A stretch of DNA of 14,726 nt from NCBI GenBank assembly GCA_043825875.1, contig JBDRRF010000050.1:1-14726 (forward strand), given 5' to 3'. The DNA is from Pseudomonadota bacterium. GTDB taxonomy: Bacteria > Desulfobacterota > Desulfobacteria > Desulfobacterales > RPRI01. How positions within the stretch are numbered: position 1 is the first letter of the stretch; each line of letters begins with the position of its first letter. The notes under the pieces were generated by a model, which was given only the letters and a program-made list of their open reading frames with translations, ran no database searches and was not told the origin of the DNA. This document shows, piece by piece, positions 563 to 10,464 of this stretch. Made by a program: the position numbers and the translations under genes.

Positions 563-2956
563 ATGACCATCAACCCTTCAAAGGAAACCCAAATTAAAAA
601 TAAAATCAAAGAAGCCAAAATTTACTATTCCATGGGGATGCTTGGTGATGCTTTGCATATTTATGAGCAATTACTGTCAGACAATTCCTTTGCTGATTCA
701 ACAGAATTCAAACATATTCAAGAAAAAGTAACCCAGATAAAAAAAGAAGTTAATAACAGCAAAATAATCTCAACGCCCGATTTATCAGCACGTGATATTA
801 ACATAATTGAAAAAACGATAACAAATACAGGAAATATTAAAGATATTATTAATAATGCACTTGCTCTTAAAGAGCTCGGACTTGCGAAAAAGTCCTCTAT
901 AGAATTTGAAAAATTACTAAAATTCGATTGCTCAAAAGAAGGGTATACCCCGCTTATAATAATTACTGAAATACTTTTAAATCTACTTAAGGTTGAACCT
1001 TTTGATACAGTCCTTGACAAAGCAAATAAAACAATTAGTGAAAATAAACTTAAGCCCATAGATATATCTCAGATAAAATTATGGCTTGGTAAGGAACTGG
1101 CCAAAAAAGACCACAATGATATTGCAATTTCATTATTCAAGGAAGCAACAGATCTTGACCCTAATAATGCAGAAGCATCGAAAAAACTAAATGCCATGCT
1201 ATCTAATTCTTCCAATAATTCTAAATTTGATCTTCTTCTCAGCTCATCATTAGTTACTCAGGATCAGCTCCAAAAAGCTCTGGATCTTTCAAAAAAAACC
1301 GGTAAAAGCATCGAATCGGTTCTGATTGAAACTTTTAATATTGAGAAACAGGACATAGGCAAATCCCTTTCATTGTATTATAATTGTCCTTTTAAAAGTT
1401 TTGACCCATCGTTGCCGGTTCCTATAGAGCTTATAGGAAAACTAAAAAAATCTTTTCTTCTTCATTATACTTGGGTTCCGTTAACCTGGGAAAAGAGCTA
1501 TATAGAAATTCTTGTAGATGATCCGAAAGATCTCAGAAAAACAGATTATATAAAGGCTTTGATGGCAAATCAAAGTATAAAATTTTCTATAGGAATTAAA
1601 GAAGATATAATAAAATATATAGCGTATTTCTTTTCAGCAGAAAAATCTTCTGAAGCAATGGAATCAAACCTTGATAATCTTGATCTTCTTATACCTGAAT
1701 TTTCTTTTGAAGAAGAGGAAGAAGAAATTGATACAAGCAAAGATATCGATGAATCTTCCAGCCAGGTAGTAAGGCTTGTTGATCAGATCATTGTAACAGC
1801 TTACAGAAAAGAAGTCTCCGATATTCATTTTGAACCCTCCCCTATTACCAAAAAGGTCAGTGTCCGTTTTAGAATGGACGGCGTTTGCAATGAATACCTC
1901 CAGGTTCCAATTACAATGGCACCGGCTGTTATTTCAAGGCTGAAAATTATGGCCGGCCTTGATATTGCCGAAAGACGGCTCCCACAGGATGGAAAGATCA
2001 AAATGAACCGCAGAGGTATACCTACATTTGAGCTGCGCATGTCTACCATGCCCACTGCGGGCGGTTACGAAGATACGGTTTTAAGAATTCTTGCAAAAGC
2101 AGGCGCAATGAAGGTTGATGATATGGGCCTTAATGAACGCAATTTAAAAATTTTAAAAAAGATCATCAGCATGCCATACGGGCTTGTACTAGCTGTAGGC
2201 CCCACCGGTTCCGGCAAAACCACAACTCTTCATTCCGCTCTTGGCCACATTAATAAACCGGAAATAAAAATATGGACAGCAGAAGATCCTATTGAAATCA
2301 CTCAGCTAGGTTTGCGCCAAGTCGAAGTCAAGCCAAGAATAGGACTCGATTTTTCAAGGGTTATGCGCGGTTTTCTACGCCTTGATCCCGATGTTATCAT
2401 GATTGGTGAAATGAGGGACAAAGAAACAGCTTCGATAGGTATAGAAGCATCCTTAACAGGCCATCTTGTCTTTTCAACTCTTCACACAAACAGCGCTCCG
2501 GAAACTGTAACCAGGCTTCTTGATATGGGACTTAATCCTCTTAATTTTTCAGATGCATTCTTAGGTGTTCTAGCGCAAAGATTAACAAGAAGATTATGTG
2601 CAAAGTGCAAAAAAGCATTCAATCCCTCAAAAGATGAATTTTATGAATTAGTTACTGAATACGGAGAAGATAAGTTTGAAGCAACAGGTATAAAATATTC
2701 TTCCGATCTTGTTTTATATACACCGGCAGGATGTGAAGCCTGCTCTGGATCCGGGTATAAAGGAAGAATGGGAATACATGAACTTATGGAAGGCACACCC
2801 ACAACAAAGGGTCTTATAAAAAAAGCTGCAAATACGGAAGAACTTTTTACGCAGGCCTATAAAGATGGAATGACAACCTTAAAACAAGACGGAATAATTA
2901 AAGTCATTAAAGGAATGACGAGTATGGATGAAGTCCGAAGAGTCTGTATAAACTGA
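563..2956 (+). CDS. GspE/PilB-family secretion/pilus assembly ATPase with N-terminal TPR-like region and degenerate MshEN-like domain
   Basis: 797 aa. Walker A GPTGSGKT (aa 546), Asp box AEDPIE, Walker B LRLDPDVIMIGEMRD, His box GHLVFSTLHTN, Zn motif CAKC...CEAC, plus SDIHFEP and ERRLPQDG motifs. TPR-like helices in aa ~15-210. RBS AAGGA upstream. Confidence 0.93.
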   Translation: MTINPSKETQIKNKIKEAKIYYSMGMLGDALHIYEQLLSDNSFADSTEFKHIQEKVTQIKKEVNNSKIISTPDLSARDINIIEKTITNTGNIKDIINNALALKELGLAKKSSIEFEKLLKFDCSKEGYTPLIIITEILLNLLKVEPFDTVLDKANKTISENKLKPIDISQIKLWLGKELAKKDHNDIAISLFKEATDLDPNNAEASKKLNAMLSNSSNNSKFDLLLSSSLVTQDQLQKALDLSKKTGKSIESVLIETFNIEKQDIGKSLSLYYNCPFKSFDPSLPVPIELIGKLKKSFLLHYTWVPLTWEKSYIEILVDDPKDLRKTDYIKALMANQSIKFSIGIKEDIIKYIAYFFSAEKSSEAMESNLDNLDLLIPEFSFEEEEEEIDTSKDIDESSSQVVRLVDQIIVTAYRKEVSDIHFEPSPITKKVSVRFRMDGVCNEYLQVPITMAPAVISRLKIMAGLDIAERRLPQDGKIKMNRRGIPTFELRMSTMPTAGGYEDTVLRILAKAGAMKVDDMGLNERNLKILKKIISMPYGLVLAVGPTGSGKTTTLHSALGHINKPEIKIWTAEDPIEITQLGLRQVEVKPRIGLDFSRVMRGFLRLDPDVIMIGEMRDKETASIGIEASLTGHLVFSTLHTNSAPETVTRLLDMGLNPLNFSDAFLGVLAQRLTRRLCAKCKKAFNPSKDEFYELVTEYGEDKFEATGIKYSSDLVLYTPAGCEACSGSGYKGRMGIHELMEGTPTTKGLIKKAANTEELFTQAYKDGMTTLKQDGIIKVIKGMTSMDEVRRVCIN

Positions 2957-3024
2957 TCACAATAATCAACTATCCTATGCACCCTTTTTTGCCGGCAACT
3001 TAGGAATAATTTAAAGGAAACAAT

Positions 3025-3831
3025 ATGTCAAAAACCGCCCTTGTAGTTGATAATGATTTCTTTTTTGTCGAATTTCTATCAGAACTTCTTGAGAGTAGGG
3101 AATATAAAGTCATAAAAGCCTACGATGGGAAAGAAGGCATTACAAAAATTGAAGATGAAAATATAGATTTAATGTTTGCTGATATTGTAATGCCGAAAAT
3201 TGACGGAACAGAGCTGATAAAATTTGCACGAATGAAATATCCTGAGAATTGTTTTGCTATAGTAGCGGTTTCAGGCACAATAATAGAACGTATAGATACT
3301 CTTACCAGCATAGGTGCCGATTATTATATAGCTAAAGGCCCTATGGAAAAAATGGCGGTTAACATAAGTGAATTGATAGATAAAATTGAAAACAATACTT
3401 TTAATAAATCCGAAATCGCCGAAATAATCGAATCCGGGAATCTTTTCCCAAGAAGAGAAGCAGTTGATCTTTTAGATTCCATCAAGTTTCATAAAGCTAT
3501 AATAGAATGCGTTGGTTTCGGCATTGTAAATATTGACTTTGACACAAAAATTATTGGAATAAATTCATGCGCCATAGACATATTAAACAAGACCACCATT
3601 GAACTTTTAAACCGACCCGTTACCGATATTTTCTCTCCCGAAGACAAATCAAAATTTATTAACACAGTAAAAAATTTTGTTAAAAACAATGAATCTAACG
3701 AAACCTCATTTACTACTATTATTAATTCAAAAAAAATAAGAGTTGTAATCACGTTATTAAAAGTTGAAAATAAAGTTATAGGACTGATACTGGCTTTGGA
3801 GGATTGCGACAAATGGGAAGAACAAGCTTAA
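3025..3831 (+). CDS. Response regulator: receiver domain plus C-terminal PAS domain, no output domain
   Basis: REC: VVDND acidic pocket, D53 in FADIVMP, S83, K104. The C-terminus is PAS-like (IIECVGFGIVNIDFDTKIIGIN...ELLNRPVTDIF). RBS AAAGGA. Confidence 0.88.
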   Translation: MSKTALVVDNDFFFVEFLSELLESREYKVIKAYDGKEGITKIEDENIDLMFADIVMPKIDGTELIKFARMKYPENCFAIVAVSGTIIERIDTLTSIGADYYIAKGPMEKMAVNISELIDKIENNTFNKSEIAEIIESGNLFPRREAVDLLDSIKFHKAIIECVGFGIVNIDFDTKIIGINSCAIDILNKTTIELLNRPVTDIFSPEDKSKFINTVKNFVKNNESNETSFTTIINSKKIRVVITLLKVENKVIGLILALEDCDKWEEQA

Positions 3832-5126
3832 AAAACAAACTTATAATGTATTTTTTAATTCTGCTGTTGATTGTAATTGTCGTAATTGCAACAGTAAATC
3901 AGACCACAAATGATTTCTTTTTAGCTCAGGGGCTTTCGATTGCTCTTGCTATGGCTATTGGAACCGTGTTTGGAATTATTTTTTCGCGATCAATTACTTC
4001 GCGTTTAAATAAACTTAGCAATGCCGCCAAAGAAATTAGCTGCGGCGATTTAACACAAGAAATACAAATCATATCCAGCGATGAAATCCGGGATCTTGAA
4101 GAAGTATTTTCTTTAATGGTTAATCACCTTAGAGCGTTGCTTCTTGATATGAAAAATGTTTCTTATAAAATCCATACCACAAACTCAATGTTAAAAATAC
4201 TGGGGAAAAAGCTTTTAGAAAACAGTAATGATATAGATATCACAGCAAAAGTTATTGCGGAAAGTTCTGCCAAACAAACGGAAATTGTAAACTACACTAC
4301 TTTAAAGTTTAACAACACTATCAAGGTAATGGATAAGCTGGTCAAACAGTCAACCCAAACTATTTCAAAAGCAGATGACGCAATCAAAAAAACTCAAAAA
4401 GGGGAAATAAATGCACGTGAAATAATAAGTCATCTTGAGCTTGTACTTAAACAAATGAGTGACTCCGCTCAACCTATTTCGAGATTACCTGAAAAAGTAG
4501 AAAAAATAAAAATAGTGACAAATGTAATAGAAGGTATTTCCCAGAAAACAGATCTTCTGTCTCTCAATGCTTCAATCGAAGCAACAAGAGCCGGTGAATC
4601 CGGTAAAGGTTTTGCCATAGTTGCCGAAGAAATAAGAAATATGGCTGAAAGTTCAAAACAGTCATCAAAAGCTATTGCAAAGCTAGTTGAAGATATTCTG
4701 GAAGATAATCATATGCTTAAAAATTTCTTAGCCAAGAATCAGTCGGAAATTGATAAAGGAAATAAAATTATACACGGTATTCTTCAAACATTTAGTGATA
4801 TGCTTCTTGGTGTAAAAGATATATTTTCTGAAATAAAAACAATTGAAGAAACCACAGTTTTACAGGCCCAGGAACTTAGAAGTTTTTCGGAACATTTCCA
4901 AAAGCTTTCTGTTTATGCATCCAGAAACTATGAATCTACTCAAAAAACTACTGTTTCAGCAACTAACCAGAAAAATGAAGTTAAAAAAATGGCAAGCGCA
5001 ATAAATTTGCTGGACAAACTTTCTCAAAAGATGATGGAAACGCAACAGCATTTCATCCTTCCTGAACAGCCGCAACAAATGCCAATAAAGTCTAATAATG
5101 AAAATAAAGATGATAAACAGCTATGA
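3813..5126 (+). CDS. Methyl-accepting chemotaxis protein (2 TM, minimal periplasmic loop, HAMP, ~44-heptad signalling domain), DifA-like architecture
   Basis: Hairpin motif QKTDLLSLNASIEATRAGESGKGFAIVAEEIR and HAMP (GDLTQEI...DEIRDL). Two hydrophobic helices are separated only by NQTTND. ATG 3813 is preferred over TTG 3804 because GGAGG lies at 3798-3802. Confidence 0.93.
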   Translation: MGRTSLKNKLIMYFLILLLIVIVVIATVNQTTNDFFLAQGLSIALAMAIGTVFGIIFSRSITSRLNKLSNAAKEISCGDLTQEIQIISSDEIRDLEEVFSLMVNHLRALLLDMKNVSYKIHTTNSMLKILGKKLLENSNDIDITAKVIAESSAKQTEIVNYTTLKFNNTIKVMDKLVKQSTQTISKADDAIKKTQKGEINAREIISHLELVLKQMSDSAQPISRLPEKVEKIKIVTNVIEGISQKTDLLSLNASIEATRAGESGKGFAIVAEEIRNMAESSKQSSKAIAKLVEDILEDNHMLKNFLAKNQSEIDKGNKIIHGILQTFSDMLLGVKDIFSEIKTIEETTVLQAQELRSFSEHFQKLSVYASRNYESTQKTTVSATNQKNEVKKMASAINLLDKLSQKMMETQQHFILPEQPQQMPIKSNNENKDDKQL

Positions 5127-5539
5127 AATTATTTGTTTTTAAATCAAAAGATAAATATATTGGAATAGAATCCGAACATATTTACAGGATAATTGATGAT
5201 TATAAAGTAACACCGGTATGCCTTACTCCAAAATGCTATGCCGGCCTGATATTTTATAGAGGAGAACTTTTTGATGTAATAAATATCAAACTTCTTCTTG
5301 GAAGTTCAGAATACTCCGAAAATGCTTATGATGAATTAATACAAAACCAGCGTATAATTATTGTAAAATGGCACAATAAAAAGCTTGCTGTTATTCCGGA
5401 TGAAATAATCGGTATGATATGGATAGACGGCAACTTCGAAAGCTTAAGCATATATCAACACGAAGATAAAAATATAAATTTAATAACACCTGATTATATC
5501 TGGAAAAAATTATCAGAGCTTTCCTATGGATATCACTAA
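5123..5539 (+). CDS. cheW: CheW-family coupling protein
   Basis: 138 aa with a CheW-like pattern (YIGI...IYRII...VTPV...GLIFYRGELFDVINIKLLLG...IIIVK...LAVIPDEIIG). It lies between the MCP and CheA and has an ATGA overlap with the MCP stop. Confidence 0.85.
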   Translation: MKLFVFKSKDKYIGIESEHIYRIIDDYKVTPVCLTPKCYAGLIFYRGELFDVINIKLLLGSSEYSENAYDELIQNQRIIIVKWHNKKLAVIPDEIIGMIWIDGNFESLSIYQHEDKNINLITPDYIWKKLSELSYGYH

Positions 5540-7118
5540 ATATGAAAAGATATTTGCCCAGGAATCAGGCAAATATCTAAAAGAACTTGAAGATCTATTA
5601 ATGCAGGTCGAAAAGGATTTGTCAAACCTTGCTTTGTGGGCAGAGATTCATGGCAAAATCCATTCGATTAAAGGTATGGCAAGAGCTCTTAGTTTGAATA
5701 AAATTTCAGATTTATGCCATTTAATGGAAGATTGGAGTCTGACTTTTCAAAAGGGCACAATAAATAGTTCTCCCGATGCTGTACAAGCCCTTTTTGACAG
5801 CTCTGATTTTCTAAGATATCTTGTTTCAAAAAAAGGAAGTATTGACACCTTTGAAGATCAGGAATTGTATAGCAGTCTGATATCCAAATTTGAAAAAAAT
5901 CCTTCCGAACTTACTAAAACAGGATCGGCAACTCAGACAGATCAAACAACAAACCTTTATAAAACTTCTGCTTTAACTATAGATCATGTAAAAATAAAGT
6001 ATTCATTTATTGAGGAGCTTCTTGGATTAACACAGGAAATACAGCTTCTTGCTAAAAATTTTCCAACTTTTTCAGATAATCAGATGACATCAGGTCTTAA
6101 AAACTGGATTGATCATTATGCCACTTTAATGAAAGTTCTATATTTCAAGTTAACACAGCTTAGATTGATGAATGTCGGTGATTTTGCAGATCTATTTTTA
6201 AAAAGCATAAGAAACATAGCCAAAGAATCTAATAAAAGTGTTAATATTGAAATAATCGGCAGTGAAATACAGGCGGACATTACACTTCTTGAGCGTCTTC
6301 GTGAACCAATGATACATATTTTCAGAAACTGCATCGCTCATGGTATTGAACCGGCAGAAGAGCGAACCAATATAGGAAAACCTGCAAACGGTAAAATTAC
6401 AATTGAAACAAAAAGTGAAAAAGAGAATTTATTCATCAAAATCCGCGATGATGGACGCGGTATAAACAAGTCTTCTATCATTCAATATCTCAAAGAAAAG
6501 CAATCAATGGATGATGAAGATATTGGCAGAATGTCTGAAGAAGAACTCTACAATACTATTTTAAGTCCGGAATTTTCTTCATCTGCCAAAACAACGGAAT
6601 TATCCGGCAGAGGTATTGGCATGAATGTAGTTGCTCAGTCAATCGATTACCTGGGGGGCTCTTTATCCATATCTTCGGAAATTGGAAAGGGAACAGAGTT
6701 TACTATCAAATTACCGCTGTCACTCTCAATCATTTATGCAATTGTATTTTCAATAGGAAAATATAACCTGGCGGTCCCCACCCTATATGTCGAATCAATA
6801 AGCAACATAGATGCATCTTCTGACGAAGATATTACATCTTATTATGACATTAAAAAATATATCGGAGCAACAGATAACGAAAAGAGTCCCTTTAATGTTT
6901 TAAATTTAAAATACTTCAACAGTCAGTCAGCTATTATTGGCAATAAACCCAATTTGCGTTTTCTGGTGGATAATATAATCGGAAACCGGCCTCTTATGGT
7001 ATTGCCTACAGGAGAGCTTTTATCAAGTATAAAACTTTTTTCCGGAATAGGTATCATGGAAAACGGAGATATCGCCCTGCTTCTTGACATAGAGAATCTT
7101 CCACCGCAAAAGCATTAA
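5526..7118 (+). CDS. cheA: CheA-family histidine kinase (HPT, dimerisation, HATPase, CheW-like P5; no P2)
   Basis: HPT H46 in HSIKG, N box HIFRNCIAHGIE, G1 DDGRGI, G2 SGRGIGM, GKGTEFTIKLPLSLSI, and a C-terminal CheW-like region ending FSGIGIMENGDIALLLDI. 14-bp overlap with cheW. Confidence 0.93.
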   Translation: MDITKYEKIFAQESGKYLKELEDLLMQVEKDLSNLALWAEIHGKIHSIKGMARALSLNKISDLCHLMEDWSLTFQKGTINSSPDAVQALFDSSDFLRYLVSKKGSIDTFEDQELYSSLISKFEKNPSELTKTGSATQTDQTTNLYKTSALTIDHVKIKYSFIEELLGLTQEIQLLAKNFPTFSDNQMTSGLKNWIDHYATLMKVLYFKLTQLRLMNVGDFADLFLKSIRNIAKESNKSVNIEIIGSEIQADITLLERLREPMIHIFRNCIAHGIEPAEERTNIGKPANGKITIETKSEKENLFIKIRDDGRGINKSSIIQYLKEKQSMDDEDIGRMSEEELYNTILSPEFSSSAKTTELSGRGIGMNVVAQSIDYLGGSLSISSEIGKGTEFTIKLPLSLSIIYAIVFSIGKYNLAVPTLYVESISNIDASSDEDITSYYDIKKYIGATDNEKSPFNVLNLKYFNSQSAIIGNKPNLRFLVDNIIGNRPLMVLPTGELLSSIKLFSGIGIMENGDIALLLDIENLPPQKH

Positions 7119-7150: not shown

Positions 7151-9685
7151 CTAATTATTCTCTATGTGATACCCGGCTTCCCCCTCGTAGATTAATGTAT
7201 GAGTCCTTTGTGCAATTTTTTCAGGATCAACTTTAATCTTCGCAACGCCTGATTCCATGGCAGCACGTGCAACTGCCGCAGCAACCGCTGGAGGAACGTT
7301 AAAATCCATGCCCCTGGGAATAATAGATTGTGGATTAAGTTTTTTATCTGAAACAAGAGCTGCTACGGTTCTTGCTGCCGCTATCTTCATCTCCTCATTT
7401 ATTATTCTTGCACGAACATCCAGCGCTCCTCTGAATACACCCGGAAAAATCAAGGAGTTATTAACCTGATTAGGAAAATCGGATCTTCCCGTAGCAACAA
7501 TCAATGCCCCGGCCTCTTTTGCCTCATCCGGGTGAATCTCAGGCGTTGGGTTGGCAAGCGCAAATATAATAGGATCTTTTGCCATGGTTAAGAGCATTTC
7601 TTTTGTAAGAACTCCGGCAACGGAAAGACCTATAAAAATATCGGAACCTTTAATTACTTTCGCAAGATCTCCTTTTATTTTTTCCGGATTTGTCTGCTCA
7701 GCCATTTCATCCTTCATCCAGTTCATACCTTCTTGCCGCCCTTTATATATTGCGCCGTTTTTATCACAAAGTATAATGTGTTTTACTCCTATTTCCATTA
7801 TCAGTTTGCAAACTGCAATAGCTGCTGCACCAGCTCCGTTTATTATAACCTTTACATCCCCAGCTTTTTTGCCGGATATTTTAAGTGAATTAAGTAAAGC
7901 AGCTGTAACAATAATAGCGGTACCATGCTGGTCATCATGGAATACCGGAATATCCATCTCTTCTTTAAGACGTCTTTCGATATAAAAGCAACGGGGCGCA
8001 GATATATCTTCTAAATTTATCCCTCCGAAAGTAGGGCTCATTCTCTTTACGATCTCCACAATTTCATCTGCATCCTGAGTACATAAACAGATCGGAAAAG
8101 CCTCAACTCCTGCAAAAGTCTGGAACAAAATTGCTTTTCCTTCCATTACAGGCATTGCGGCCTGCGGGCCTATATTTCCAAGACCAAGCACAGCACTGCC
8201 ATCTGTAACAATGGCCACAAGATTTCCCTTGGCAGTGTAGTCATATATCAATTCGGGGTTTTCCCTGATCAGGCGCGCCGGCGCTTCTGCAAAAGGAGGC
8301 ATGTAAAACTGGCCGAGAATATAATTATCCTTGATCGCTATTTTACTTCTTATCTGGAGAACCCCACGGTATCGCCTGTGAAACTCAAGCGATTCTTCCT
8401 CAATCGACTTTTTTTTCGGATCAGGCGGATCAATAGGCCACTGCCCTTCATATACATACCTGCGGGTCATATCGGAAATAACAGCAGGATCAACATCTCC
8501 TTTGGCTTCCCCTGTCTTTATCGCAGCCTTTGCAACTGCTTCCGCTATTTTTGGCGCAACCCGAAAGTCGAATATTTTCGGCATAACATGCTCAGGATTA
8601 AGCTCCTCGGAACTCACACAATCAGCAAGAGCCTGAGCCGCAGAAAGTGCCATATCCGTATTAATATTGCTTGCCCGTGTTTCAAGAATGCCTCTGAAAA
8701 AGCCCGGAAAAATCATTGCAACATCAGACTGATTAGGAAAATCCGCTCTGTTAAACACCATTACTTTTGCACCTGCATGGCGCGCTTCATCAGGCATAAT
8801 TTCAGGATGAGGAGTAGAAAGGGCAAATACTATCGGGTCTTTTGCCATGGATTTTATCATATCTCCGTTAAGAACATTTCCGGATGAAAGACCGATAAAA
8901 ACATCTGCCCCTTTTAGAGCCTGCTCTAGAGTTCCAATAAAATTATCAGGATTTGTGTTTTTAACTATTTCCCACTTCGCCCAGCTCATTCCTTTCAGAC
9001 GGTATTTATAAAGTGAGCCGTCCCTGTCGCATACTATCACCTGTTTTATCCCGGCTTTTACTAAAAGGTCCGCGCTTGCAAGTCCGGCCATACCAGCTCC
9101 GTTTATTACTACCCTGGAGTTAACAATATCCTTATCAACAACCTTCATTGAATTTATCAAAGCGGCAAGAACGGGAATTGCAACTCCAAGCCCATGATTA
9201 TTAAATACCGGTATATCTGCAGCTCTTTCAAGATGATCGGTAATAGTAAAGCTCTGGGGACTTGCAATGTCTTCAAGGCAGAACGCTCCAAAAGTTGGTG
9301 TAAGAGCCAGTGCAGTTTCAATAAACTCATAAGGATCTTTTGTTCTGATGCATATCGGAAGGGCATCTACACCGGCAAATGTCTTGAATATAACAGACTT
9401 TCCCTCCATAACAGGAAGAGCTGCTTCAGGCCCTGCATGCCCAAGCCGAAATAGTCCGGAACCGTCTGTTAAAATACCTACTGTGTTTCCGCGACATGAT
9501 AACAAATAAGACTGTACCGGGTCTTTGGCTATTTCCAAACAGGAAGAAGCAACTCCGGGAGTATAAACAAGGCTTAATATCCTTGAATCCTTTATTGGTA
9601 TCTTGGGGGAAACACCTATAACTCCACGATAACGTTTCCTGTATGCAAGAGCTTGTGCTTCCTGATTAATAATATTTTCCGGCAT
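7151..9685 (-). CDS. Tandem (internally duplicated) NAD(P)-dependent malic enzyme, two small-subunit ME modules in one 844-aa chain
   Basis: Two ~420-aa repeats, each with LPVMEGK/MPVMEGK, TFG..LEDI, NGAG.A, DFPNQ and FPG.FRG, and each ending in a YEG motif. Start placed at ATG 9685 (RBS AAGGAG at 9697-9692) rather than GTG 9745. There is no PTA domain, so this is not the MaeB architecture. Confidence 0.92.
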   Translation of the reverse strand: MPENIINQEAQALAYRKRYRGVIGVSPKIPIKDSRILSLVYTPGVASSCLEIAKDPVQSYLLSCRGNTVGILTDGSGLFRLGHAGPEAALPVMEGKSVIFKTFAGVDALPICIRTKDPYEFIETALALTPTFGAFCLEDIASPQSFTITDHLERAADIPVFNNHGLGVAIPVLAALINSMKVVDKDIVNSRVVINGAGMAGLASADLLVKAGIKQVIVCDRDGSLYKYRLKGMSWAKWEIVKNTNPDNFIGTLEQALKGADVFIGLSSGNVLNGDMIKSMAKDPIVFALSTPHPEIMPDEARHAGAKVMVFNRADFPNQSDVAMIFPGFFRGILETRASNINTDMALSAAQALADCVSSEELNPEHVMPKIFDFRVAPKIAEAVAKAAIKTGEAKGDVDPAVISDMTRRYVYEGQWPIDPPDPKKKSIEEESLEFHRRYRGVLQIRSKIAIKDNYILGQFYMPPFAEAPARLIRENPELIYDYTAKGNLVAIVTDGSAVLGLGNIGPQAAMPVMEGKAILFQTFAGVEAFPICLCTQDADEIVEIVKRMSPTFGGINLEDISAPRCFYIERRLKEEMDIPVFHDDQHGTAIIVTAALLNSLKISGKKAGDVKVIINGAGAAAIAVCKLIMEIGVKHIILCDKNGAIYKGRQEGMNWMKDEMAEQTNPEKIKGDLAKVIKGSDIFIGLSVAGVLTKEMLLTMAKDPIIFALANPTPEIHPDEAKEAGALIVATGRSDFPNQVNNSLIFPGVFRGALDVRARIINEEMKIAAARTVAALVSDKKLNPQSIIPRGMDFNVPPAVAAAVARAAMESGVAKIKVDPEKIAQRTHTLIYEGEAGYHIENN

Positions 9686-9703
9686 TGAAATCTCCTTAAA
9701 AAA

Positions 9704-9777
9704 GGGTTCCTGGTTTCGATGGTTCAAGAGATAAACCCACTTCACTTGAATCCTTGAACCCTGGAACCATTGAATCC
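9704..9777. repeat. Inverted pair of degenerate octamer tandem arrays (consensus TTGAACCC)
   Basis: Right array TTGAATCC-TTGAACCC-TGGAACCA-TTGAATCC (9746-9777). Left array GGGTTCCT-GGTTTCGA-TGGTTCAA (9704-9727) consists of reverse-complement variants. The arrays are 18 bp apart. Confidence 0.75.
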
Positions 9778-9783
9778 TTAATA

Positions 9784-10464
9784 TTATATTTTTGAACCGT
9801 TTTTCACAGCTTTGGTTGCAAGATAATCGGCAAGTTCATTTTCTTTATGGCCTGCATGACCTTTGACTTTAATAAGTTTAATATCATTAAAACTTCTCAT
9901 TTTTACTTTAATTGAATTTATTAATTCAATATTTTTTTTTGGTTTCCAGTTTAAACAAAGAACACCGTAAGAATAAGAACTATCTGTAAATATTCTTACC
10001 GGTTTTTTTGTTGTCTTAAGCTCTGCCAGGGCAACTCTTATTGCTTCCAGTTCTGCAATATTGTTAGTAGCAATTCCTATATACTGTGATATCTCCTTTT
10101 CAAGTTCTCCGAAACGCAATAAAACCCCAATACCTGAAGGTCCCGGATTGCCAGATGATGCGCCATCAGTATAAATACAAACAGCATCCGAAGGGATAAC
10201 TTCTTCCTTGATAAAAACGTTAACAGATTTTTTTAAAGAATTTTTATTTGATACTTTTTTATCATCTTTCGACCCATCTTTTTTTATAGAATCTACAGGC
10301 TCAAGTTTATTTTCAAAAACCCAGTATTCATAGTCCTGCTTAGTATTATATTTAATCAATACTTTTCCGTTTTTAATTACCGGTTTTTCTTCGGATGAAA
10401 AGGCCTGCCAGACTTTGTTGCCCTTAAACATCTTTCTTTTCCATAAGATATCATTTTCTTCCAT
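9784..10464 (-). CDS. rnhA: Ribonuclease HI with ~90-aa N-terminal extension
   Basis: Catalytic motifs YTDGASSGNPG, TNNIAELEA, IFTDS, KVKGHAG and NELAD are all present. Confidence 0.92.
   Translation of the reverse strand: MEENDILWKRKMFKGNKVWQAFSSEEKPVIKNGKVLIKYNTKQDYEYWVFENKLEPVDSIKKDGSKDDKKVSNKNSLKKSVNVFIKEEVIPSDAVCIYTDGASSGNPGPSGIGVLLRFGELEKEISQYIGIATNNIAELEAIRVALAELKTTKKPVRIFTDSSYSYGVLCLNWKPKKNIELINSIKVKMRSFNDIKLIKVKGHAGHKENELADYLATKAVKNGSKI

Follow-up and report, generated by a model that had tools for sequence, protein, structure and literature searches.

A tandem malic enzyme with one predicted composite active site and a degenerate second site

The stretch of DNA analyzed here (the window) comprises the 14,726 nucleotides of contig JBDRRF010000050.1 from a Pseudomonadota bacterium placed in the Desulfobacterales (assembly GCA_043825875.1), and its minus strand encodes, at 7151..9685, a tandem malic enzyme (ME) of 844 aa. 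In this protein two small-type ME units follow one another in a single chain, and each has lost what the other has kept. The chain very probably builds one composite active site, with the catalytic tyrosine contributed by the N-terminal half (N-half) and the remaining catalytic residues by the C-terminal half (C-half). This high probability follows from reciprocal conservation, equal selection on the two halves, the position of the Y41 arm in structure models and the existence of shortened relatives, and the composite site is common ground for readings that see the second site as a scaffold or as a new enzyme. That the second site additionally binds a ligand and regulates the first is, judged from sequence, about an even call. 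The tandem ME is a real and widespread form of the enzyme, and apparently an undescribed one.

In small-type MEs the dimer is required for the active site, and the catalytic tyrosine comes from the other protomer, as described in the available portions of PMC7902834 and bioRxiv 10.1101/2020.07.07.192161. For MaeB, the same portions of PMC7902834 name Y52', K107, E149 and D174 as catalytic residues, assign NADP+ specificity to D233, R242 and K250, and place N300 and V330 at the nicotinamide. The proposed model starts from such an obligate small-subunit homodimer, which would have become one chain via tandem duplication. The two copies would then have divided their labor, with the chain folding as an intramolecular pseudo-dimer. 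Specifically, site 1 would be complete, combining Y41 on the crossover arm of the N-half with K517, E559, D560, D584, D585 and the Rossmann fold of the C-half, and would convert malate and NADP+ to pyruvate, CO2 and NADPH. Site 2, formed by K96, E138, D139, N163 and H164 together with a remodelled Y461 loop, would be catalytically dead; its malate, metal and nicotinamide parts would have drifted, and its adenosine/2'-phosphate part would have been retained. Site 2 would most likely bind NADP(H) or a similar nucleotide and tune site 1 through the shared interface.

The gene is supported by open reading frame, motif and Pfam evidence. Its frame is stop-free from 9685 to 7151 on the minus strand, to which all coordinates within the gene refer, and a Shine-Dalgarno-like AAGGAG (9692..9697) lies 6 nt before the ATG at 9685. 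Because open frames of exactly 844 aa are found in two genomes of the same genus, this ATG, and not the GTG at 9745, is the likely start. The N- and C-halves align with 190/408 identities (47%, E 3e-124), and the protein matches PF00390 in two stretches and PF03949 in two stretches. All residues named in the first-pass annotation of the window, which had proposed a pseudo-heterodimer with complementary motif losses, lie where it had placed them: Y41, TDGS73, K96, E138, D139, N162-N-H-G, NGAG195, STP290, FNRAD311 and NQSD318 in the N-half, and Y461 in FYMPP, K517, E559, D560, HDDQHG583, ANP711, TGRSD732 and NQVNN739 in the C-half.

Alignment, conservation and models mark the N-half (aa 1-415, 8441..9685) as a degenerate small-type ME unit that probably serves as tyrosine donor and dimer-interface partner. 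Its Tyr arm (aa 37-49, 9539..9577; Y41 codon 9565-9563) is the predicted donor to the C-half site. N162-N-H-G165 (9191..9202) stands in place of HDDQ, with N163 at the position of the catalytic-triad Asp, and the Rossmann glycine motif G196-A-G-M-A-G201 (9083..9100) follows. A linker (aa 416-428, 8402..8440), modelled as coil with a local confidence (pLDDT) of ~85 for its block, leads to the C-half (aa 429-836, 7178..8401), which by alignment and conservation is the predicted catalytic unit and lacks the canonical Tyr loop. In its place stands the remodelled loop Y461-M-P-P (8294..8305; family consensus YLPP), which would face the dead site. The C-half further carries the catalytic Lys K517 (8135..8137), E559-D560 (8006..8011), H583-D-D-Q-H587 (7925..7939) and, at 7457..7555, ANP711 and TGRSD...NQVNN743, the predicted nicotinamide and substrate contacts. 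A YEG motif closes each half (aa 412-414 and 833-835; 8452-8444 and 7189-7181) in nearly all doubles and is absent from most single-unit controls.

Mapping of the MaeB residues onto the query places Y52' at Y461 or Y41, K107 at K517, E149-D150 at E559-D560, D174 at D584, D233/R242/K250 at D641/R650/K658 (7712..7765), N300 at N712 and V330 at V741. The identity of D584 as the Asp that coordinates the catalytic Lys rests on an alignment with the Bdellovibrio MaeB and on the numbering in the available part of PMC7902834; its N-half counterpart is N163. D641/R650/K658 form an NADP+-type cofactor signature and suggest a preference of site 1 for NADP, and D220/R229/K237 (8975..9028) are their N-half counterparts by the same mapping. 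The adjacent D585 we take to be a metal ligand.

The division of motifs is a property of the whole family. Pooling 120 listed matches, 59 further long proteins and 20 genome loci gave 199 full-length doubles, which collapse to 142 at 90% identity and to 37 at 70%. The N-half Y[TS]PG is found in 198/199 and the C-half K/E/D/D/D/N set likewise in 198/199; conversely, Asp at N-half position 163 occurs in 0/199 (Asn in 181/199) and a C-half Y[TS]PG loop in 0/199. The same four features count 36, 36, 0 and 0 in the 37 representatives below 70% identity. Among single-unit controls, both parts occur together, with the Y-x-P-G loop in 131/132 and K/E/D/D/D in 132/132; these controls exclude the N-half fragments P0183 and P0232 and draw on 80 loci from a scan of a genome collection with generic patterns, none of which is a full double ME by length, which leaves the family's taxonomy from named genomes sparse. 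Within the C-half, K517, E559-D560, the HDDQH motif and R734 are each present in 199/199 doubles, and N712 and N742 in 198/199. The first-pass annotation had expected the NNHG and YMPP substitutions themselves to be conserved in homologues of ~840 aa, an expectation that did not hold: they occur in 25/199 and 4/199, and the commonest forms among the 120 matches are HNHAHG and YLPP. By alignment, the conserved trait is the loss of the motif, not any particular substitution.

Purifying selection acts equally on the two halves. Over 21 pairs from seven genus sequences, the N-half has a ratio of nonsynonymous to synonymous substitution rates (dN/dS) of 0.046 and the C-half one of 0.043, with dS approaching saturation for the two sequences that are most distant; the Rossmann domains have ratios of 0.063 and 0.077, respectively.

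Structure models point in the same direction. AlphaFold2, run on a 120-row alignment, folds the whole chain with a pLDDT of 93.1 and a predicted template modelling score (pTM) of 0.92. When the halves were folded as two chains, they paired with a score of 0.93, and the best of three controls reached 0.00; in a benchmark this score was attained by 116/157 solved complexes and 2/215 mismatched pairs. The two-chain runs agree in at least 96% of contacts, the partner pLDDT is at least 91, and the modelled interface includes N-half residues 37-53 and C-half residues 515-520. This result may stem from a resemblance to ME homodimers of solved structure. The position of the Y41 arm in the model was probed with large-subunit MEs, whose tyrosine sits on their own chain. 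Human ME (1efk, residues 96-560) aligns on model residues 29-833 with Z 39.3, an rmsd (root-mean-square deviation) of 2.4 and 376 aligned residues, and Mycobacterium tuberculosis MEZ (6urf, residues 80-547) on residues 26-839 with Z 35.5, rmsd 2.8 and 368 aligned. Both alignments begin in the N-half arm and finish in the C-half, and on an ungapped start Y41 falls at 6urf residue 95, adjoining the catalytic Tyr96. Overall, 13/31 large-subunit rows aligned as arm plus C-half. None of the structure matches is a solved chain spanning both halves (best TM-score by query length 0.47). The first-pass annotation had proposed an AlphaFold check of whether Y41 sits in the C-half site, and the modelled arm indeed lies at the own-chain Tyr region of large-subunit MEs.

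A natural deletion series provides a further view of which parts of the chain are dispensable. Searching with the N-half brought up three shorter proteins in which an N-terminal YTPG precedes the intact catalytic unit by a long stretch, and a search with one of the three listed 34 proteins below 800 aa among 120 matches; 33 of these (509-709 aa) were kept, and P0127, a truncated full double, was dropped. All 33 combine one N-terminal Y[TS]PG with intact EGK, NLED, HDDQH, ANP, TGRSD and NQxNN, and 0/33 have a canonical Tyr loop in the C-unit, the one pattern match having fallen in the linker. The catalytic units of these proteins form the sister group of the full-double units (0.978), and their source names are partly Melainabacteria/Gastranaerophilales. 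Among 150 representatives at 50% identity, a further view yields 20 shortened forms of 479-812 aa, two of which are also among the 33, and one cluster of shortened forms includes a Planctomycetota protein. The Tyr-to-HDDQH spacing in those 20 is 234-513 residues, versus 120-123 in singles. The series descends from 709 to 479 aa through P0178, P0174, P0190, P0250-P0277, P0282, P0306, P0375, P0377, P0390 and P0397. For P0306 (509 aa) the model reaches a pLDDT of 90.9 and a pTM of 0.91, and 31/31 large-subunit rows align on it from residues 1-15 to 509, Tyr arm (Y29) included; small-type chains nevertheless score above the large-subunit ones (Z ~46 vs ~30).

As far as alignments can tell, the remnant of the first copy is the Tyr arm plus dimer domain, exactly what the one-site model needs, and the shortened series would thus show a two-subunit enzyme turning self-contained. 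The most eroded forms have the large-type order of elements, with the Tyr helix before the R-G-x-x-x strand, and in small MEs this order is reversed. A single origin for all shortened forms was considered and set aside: P0340, P0349 and P0363, and in one tree also a group of nine, lie outside or are unplaced, and the trees suggest several separate erosions of the first copy. The group of nine (P0346, P0347, P0350, P0354, P0355, P0359, P0360, P0369 and P0394; 614-727 aa) forms its own clade and, given its long divergent N-parts, might at a guess come from microbial eukaryotes.

At the second site, conservation is split by subsite. The mean top-residue frequency at malate, metal and nicotinamide positions is 0.55 in the N-half vs 0.98 in the C-half, and at adenosine/2'-phosphate positions it is 0.96 vs 0.93. 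G196 and G198 of the N-half Rossmann motif are present in 199/199 doubles, and the D/R/K signature of the D220/R229/K237 type is found in 198/199 N-halves, 190/199 C-halves and 87/132 singles. By comparison, E or D stands at position 138, one of D, N, S, A, G and T at 139, and one of H, Q, D, E and G at 164. K96 is retained in 173/199, with R at this position in 24/199, and retention is likewise high for N163 (181/199), Y461 (186/199) and the Rossmann fold.

These observations can be read in more than one way. A credible, if tentative, alternative accepts the same composite site and regards the N-half as a structural tyrosine donor and dimer partner only, with its Rossmann domain kept for folding or packing and binding no ligand of consequence. 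The shortened relatives of 479-812 aa, in which the N-half Rossmann domain has decayed or been deleted and arm and dimer domain are kept, fit this alternative well, as do the confident fold of the 509-aa member and the wide variation at the substrate and metal positions of site 2. It leaves unexplained why the N-half D/R/K signature is retained more strictly than in the catalytic half, and far more strictly than in singles, while its neighbors drifted, and why the N-half Rossmann domain has a dN/dS below that of the C-half. That the second site acquired a different catalytic activity, one of the options raised in the first-pass annotation, is decidedly unlikely. Such a site would profit from the retention of K96, N163, Y461 and the Rossmann fold, but new chemistry should fix a set of residues, and the would-be catalytic and metal positions 138, 139, 164 and 96 vary freely instead; moreover, the shortened relatives have deleted the site.

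A different arrangement would make the C-half self-sufficient, with two chains pairing C to C, Y461 as the working tyrosine and the N-half in a regulatory role like that of the PTA domain in MaeB. The retention of Y461 speaks for this arrangement, which is nonetheless highly improbable: the near-invariance of Y41-T-P-G would go unexplained, with the arm directed at dead N:N sites; the Y461 loop varies, its top-residue frequency being 0.61 vs 0.93 for the N-half arm, and is lost in shortened forms that keep the other catalytic motifs; and in both models the N-half pairs with the C-half. That the gene is an assembly artefact, or a recent duplication in decay, has a negligible probability. A few database entries do look frameshifted or collapsed (P0121, P0126 with P0171, and P0135), but the halves are only 47% identical, 142 homologues differ at below 90% mutual identity, tandem frames recur in at least 38/301 genomes of the phylum, and dN/dS is ~0.045 in both halves. 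The first-pass view that the reciprocal pattern reflects selection rather than decay, and its pseudo-heterodimer with one complete site (Y41 plus the C-half K/E/D/D), are both upheld by family conservation, dN/dS, structure models and deletion forms.

Several points weigh against one composite site with a ligand-binding, regulatory second site. The full-length P0338 (860 aa), the sole exception to both the N-half Tyr and the C-half set counts, lacks the Tyr in both loops and is altered at the ANP/NQVNN positions; it may be inactive or differently employed. Y461 is kept in most doubles, though a one-site model does not need it, and 18/31 large-subunit rows aligned on the N-half alone and are uninformative on the arm. 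The subsite residue sets were chosen after the profile had been seen, and most adenosine positions are structural glycines, so that D220, R229 and K237 are, at the level of sequence, the only direct evidence for a ligand at site 2. The N-half counterpart of the nicotinamide contact MaeB N300 is Asn in just 8/142 representatives. Finally, the N-half Rossmann glycine motif is absent in 33/33 shortened relatives; a site-2 ligand would thus not be required in every member, and regulation would not be the reason for every member's first half.

The family is broadly distributed. In a protein search, 120/120 of the matches listed were 833-871 aa long and covered 97-100% of the query, with source names that include Desulfobacterium sp., NC10, Chloroflexi, Thermomicrobiales, Deltaproteobacteria, Nitrospinae, Ca. 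Brocadiales and Desulfobacterium sp. N47. Within the genus, 7/17 genomes carry the tandem ME as one open frame, each time as the only ME match, and it is also the sole ME in the genome of the window (99.81% complete). In a sample of the phylum, at least 38/301 genomes from 11 families, counted by eye from the rows listed, carry two ME matches within a single open frame (823-989 aa). A FastTree phylogeny built from 134 single-length proteins and both halves of 120 doubles groups the N-halves (1.0) and the C-halves (0.974) into clades that are sisters of each other (1.0), which points to a single duplication ancestral to these 120 doubles; two apparent intruders in the tree are N-half fragments. 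Stand-alone N-type proteins were also considered, and the matches proved to be contig-edge fragments or frameshifted-looking entries; among these N-type matches, viewed as proteins apart from their genomic context, there was no convincing case of a two-gene heterodimer.

Individual members depart from the common layout. One genome (G258) has two complete double-ME frames plus a third copy that is probably cut short by a contig end. P0353 (848 aa) shows the opposite arrangement, with HDDQH in a first unit that lacks the YTPG loop and YTPG in the second, and is possibly an independent tandem with reversed roles. P0135 (423 aa) is a single-length chimera of a dead N-half front and a C-half back, and could have arisen by deletion between the repeats or by collapse during assembly.

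The surroundings of the gene offer little guidance. A chemotaxis-like cluster lies downstream on the opposite strand, and RNase H, NamZ and a trypsin/PDZ protease lie upstream. The flanks rnhA (upstream) and cheA (downstream) are kept in 5/7 genus loci and differ in the other two, so that the neighbors give no clue to a pathway. A promoter and terminator scan returned shuffle-level counts only (6 vs 9.2 and 5 vs 3.0). On the plus strand, 563-7118 encodes a compact chemosensory cluster adjoining a pilus ATPase: the ATPase is of the PilB/GspE type and carries a TPR at its N-terminus, and after it come a receiver-PAS protein, an MCP, a CheW and a CheA-like kinase. On the minus strand, 9784-10464 encodes an RNase HI whose N-terminus is extended by ~90 aa; the extension matches no Pfam family and is conserved in the genus loci. 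Just upstream of the ME ribosome-binding site, 9736-9790 is a short repeat with TTCAAGG-type units; blastn finds 60 matches to it in the genome at E <= 0.01, unrelated contigs contain pieces resembling it, and it looks like a dispersed REP/MITE-type element.

The tandem ME has implications beyond this window. A literature search that left most subscription journals and supplements outside its scope found no description of it; the accessible part of the physiology paper on Desulfobacterium sp. N47 mentions neither 'malic' nor the locus tag, and the accessible parts of PMC11134350 and PMC12137691 contain nothing on a tandem ME architecture. Since the protein is common in the phylum and no other ME accompanies it in the genus genomes, it probably sets the flux through malate, pyruvate and NADPH there, under an ordinary annotation. 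It also presents a clean candidate case of subfunctionalisation within one chain, accompanied by a natural deletion series. The members of 480-510 aa are candidate compact MEs with one chain and one site, for studies of mechanism and for the engineering of CO2 fixation, where a homodimer does not allow its two sites to be altered one at a time.

Three structural classes of ME, small, large and chimeric (ME-PTA hybrid), are named in the available portion of bioRxiv 10.1101/2020.07.07.192161, and the tandem form adds a fourth layout to them. Each half of the query has the fold of the small-subunit MEs from Ca. Phytoplasma AYWB (5cee), Thermotoga maritima (TM0542, 1vl6) and Pyrococcus horikoshii (PH1275, 1ww8/2dvm), at 42-51% identity; 5cee aligns on the N-half with Z 51.7, rmsd 1.2 and 387 aligned residues. 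The models also reproduce their dimer geometry with the crossover Tyr arm. These enzymes consist of one 40-50 kDa unit that forms a homodimer with two equivalent sites, whereas the query has two unequal units and one complete predicted site, for which Y41 with K517, E559, D560, D584 and D585 makes the small-subunit set Y, K, E, D, D, D available.

Bacterial MEs of 80-90 kDa are described as PTA fusions in the available portions of PMC8100219 and PMC12704298. The query resembles these hybrids (MaeB/DME/TME) in its size of ~85-90 kDa, in its small-type ME unit and in an appended, catalytically dead enzyme domain, and it has the NADP-type D/R/K signature in common with MaeB. In contrast to the hybrids, Pfam finds no C-terminal PTA domain in the query, and the NF009501 score is 698.8 vs a cut-off of 1178. 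Its dead domain is a copy of ME itself that would supply a catalytic residue, whereas that of MaeB is a PTA, and the extra 'hook' insert of MaeB is a gap in the query.

With large-subunit MEs (human ME1/2/3, Escherichia coli MaeA and M. tuberculosis MEZ), the query as modelled has in common a complete site in one chain, and the arms carrying Y41 in the query and Y29 in the 509-aa form overlay the own-chain Tyr region of these enzymes. Large-subunit MEs have subunits of ~60 kDa and form a sequence family of their own, to which the query does not belong: identity is ~25%, and the NF010052 score is 200.9 vs a cut-off of 326. The tree includes four large-subunit sequences, none of which groups within the tandem clade, and convergence is therefore the preferred account of the likeness. 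The tree gives no support to a derivation of large-subunit MEs from the tandem family; they are represented in it by four rows on a very long branch, and their placement is compatible with an independent, earlier duplication event. The most far-reaching reading would make the tandem MEs a fourth structural class in which the dead site is a redox-nucleotide sensor and the members from 844 to 479 aa are living stages between a trans-Tyr homodimer and a self-contained enzyme, and, at its boldest, would trace the large-subunit MEs, human ones included, to an earlier event of duplication and erosion similar to this one. Such an origin would explain why the Tyr helix precedes the R-G-x-x-x strand in large MEs and follows it in small ones, and this reading is a long shot.

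A broader precedent is given by duplicated enzymes with a catalytic and a regulatory half, such as mammalian hexokinase I, eukaryotic phosphofructokinase and the yeast NAD-dependent isocitrate dehydrogenase IDH1/IDH2. In these systems, one of two homologous sites loses catalysis after duplication and may become an effector site, and in the yeast isocitrate dehydrogenase some residues of the catalytic site come from the regulatory subunit as well. Their folds are unrelated or distant to that of the tandem ME, and in some tandem ME lineages, by comparison, the non-catalytic half is being deleted.

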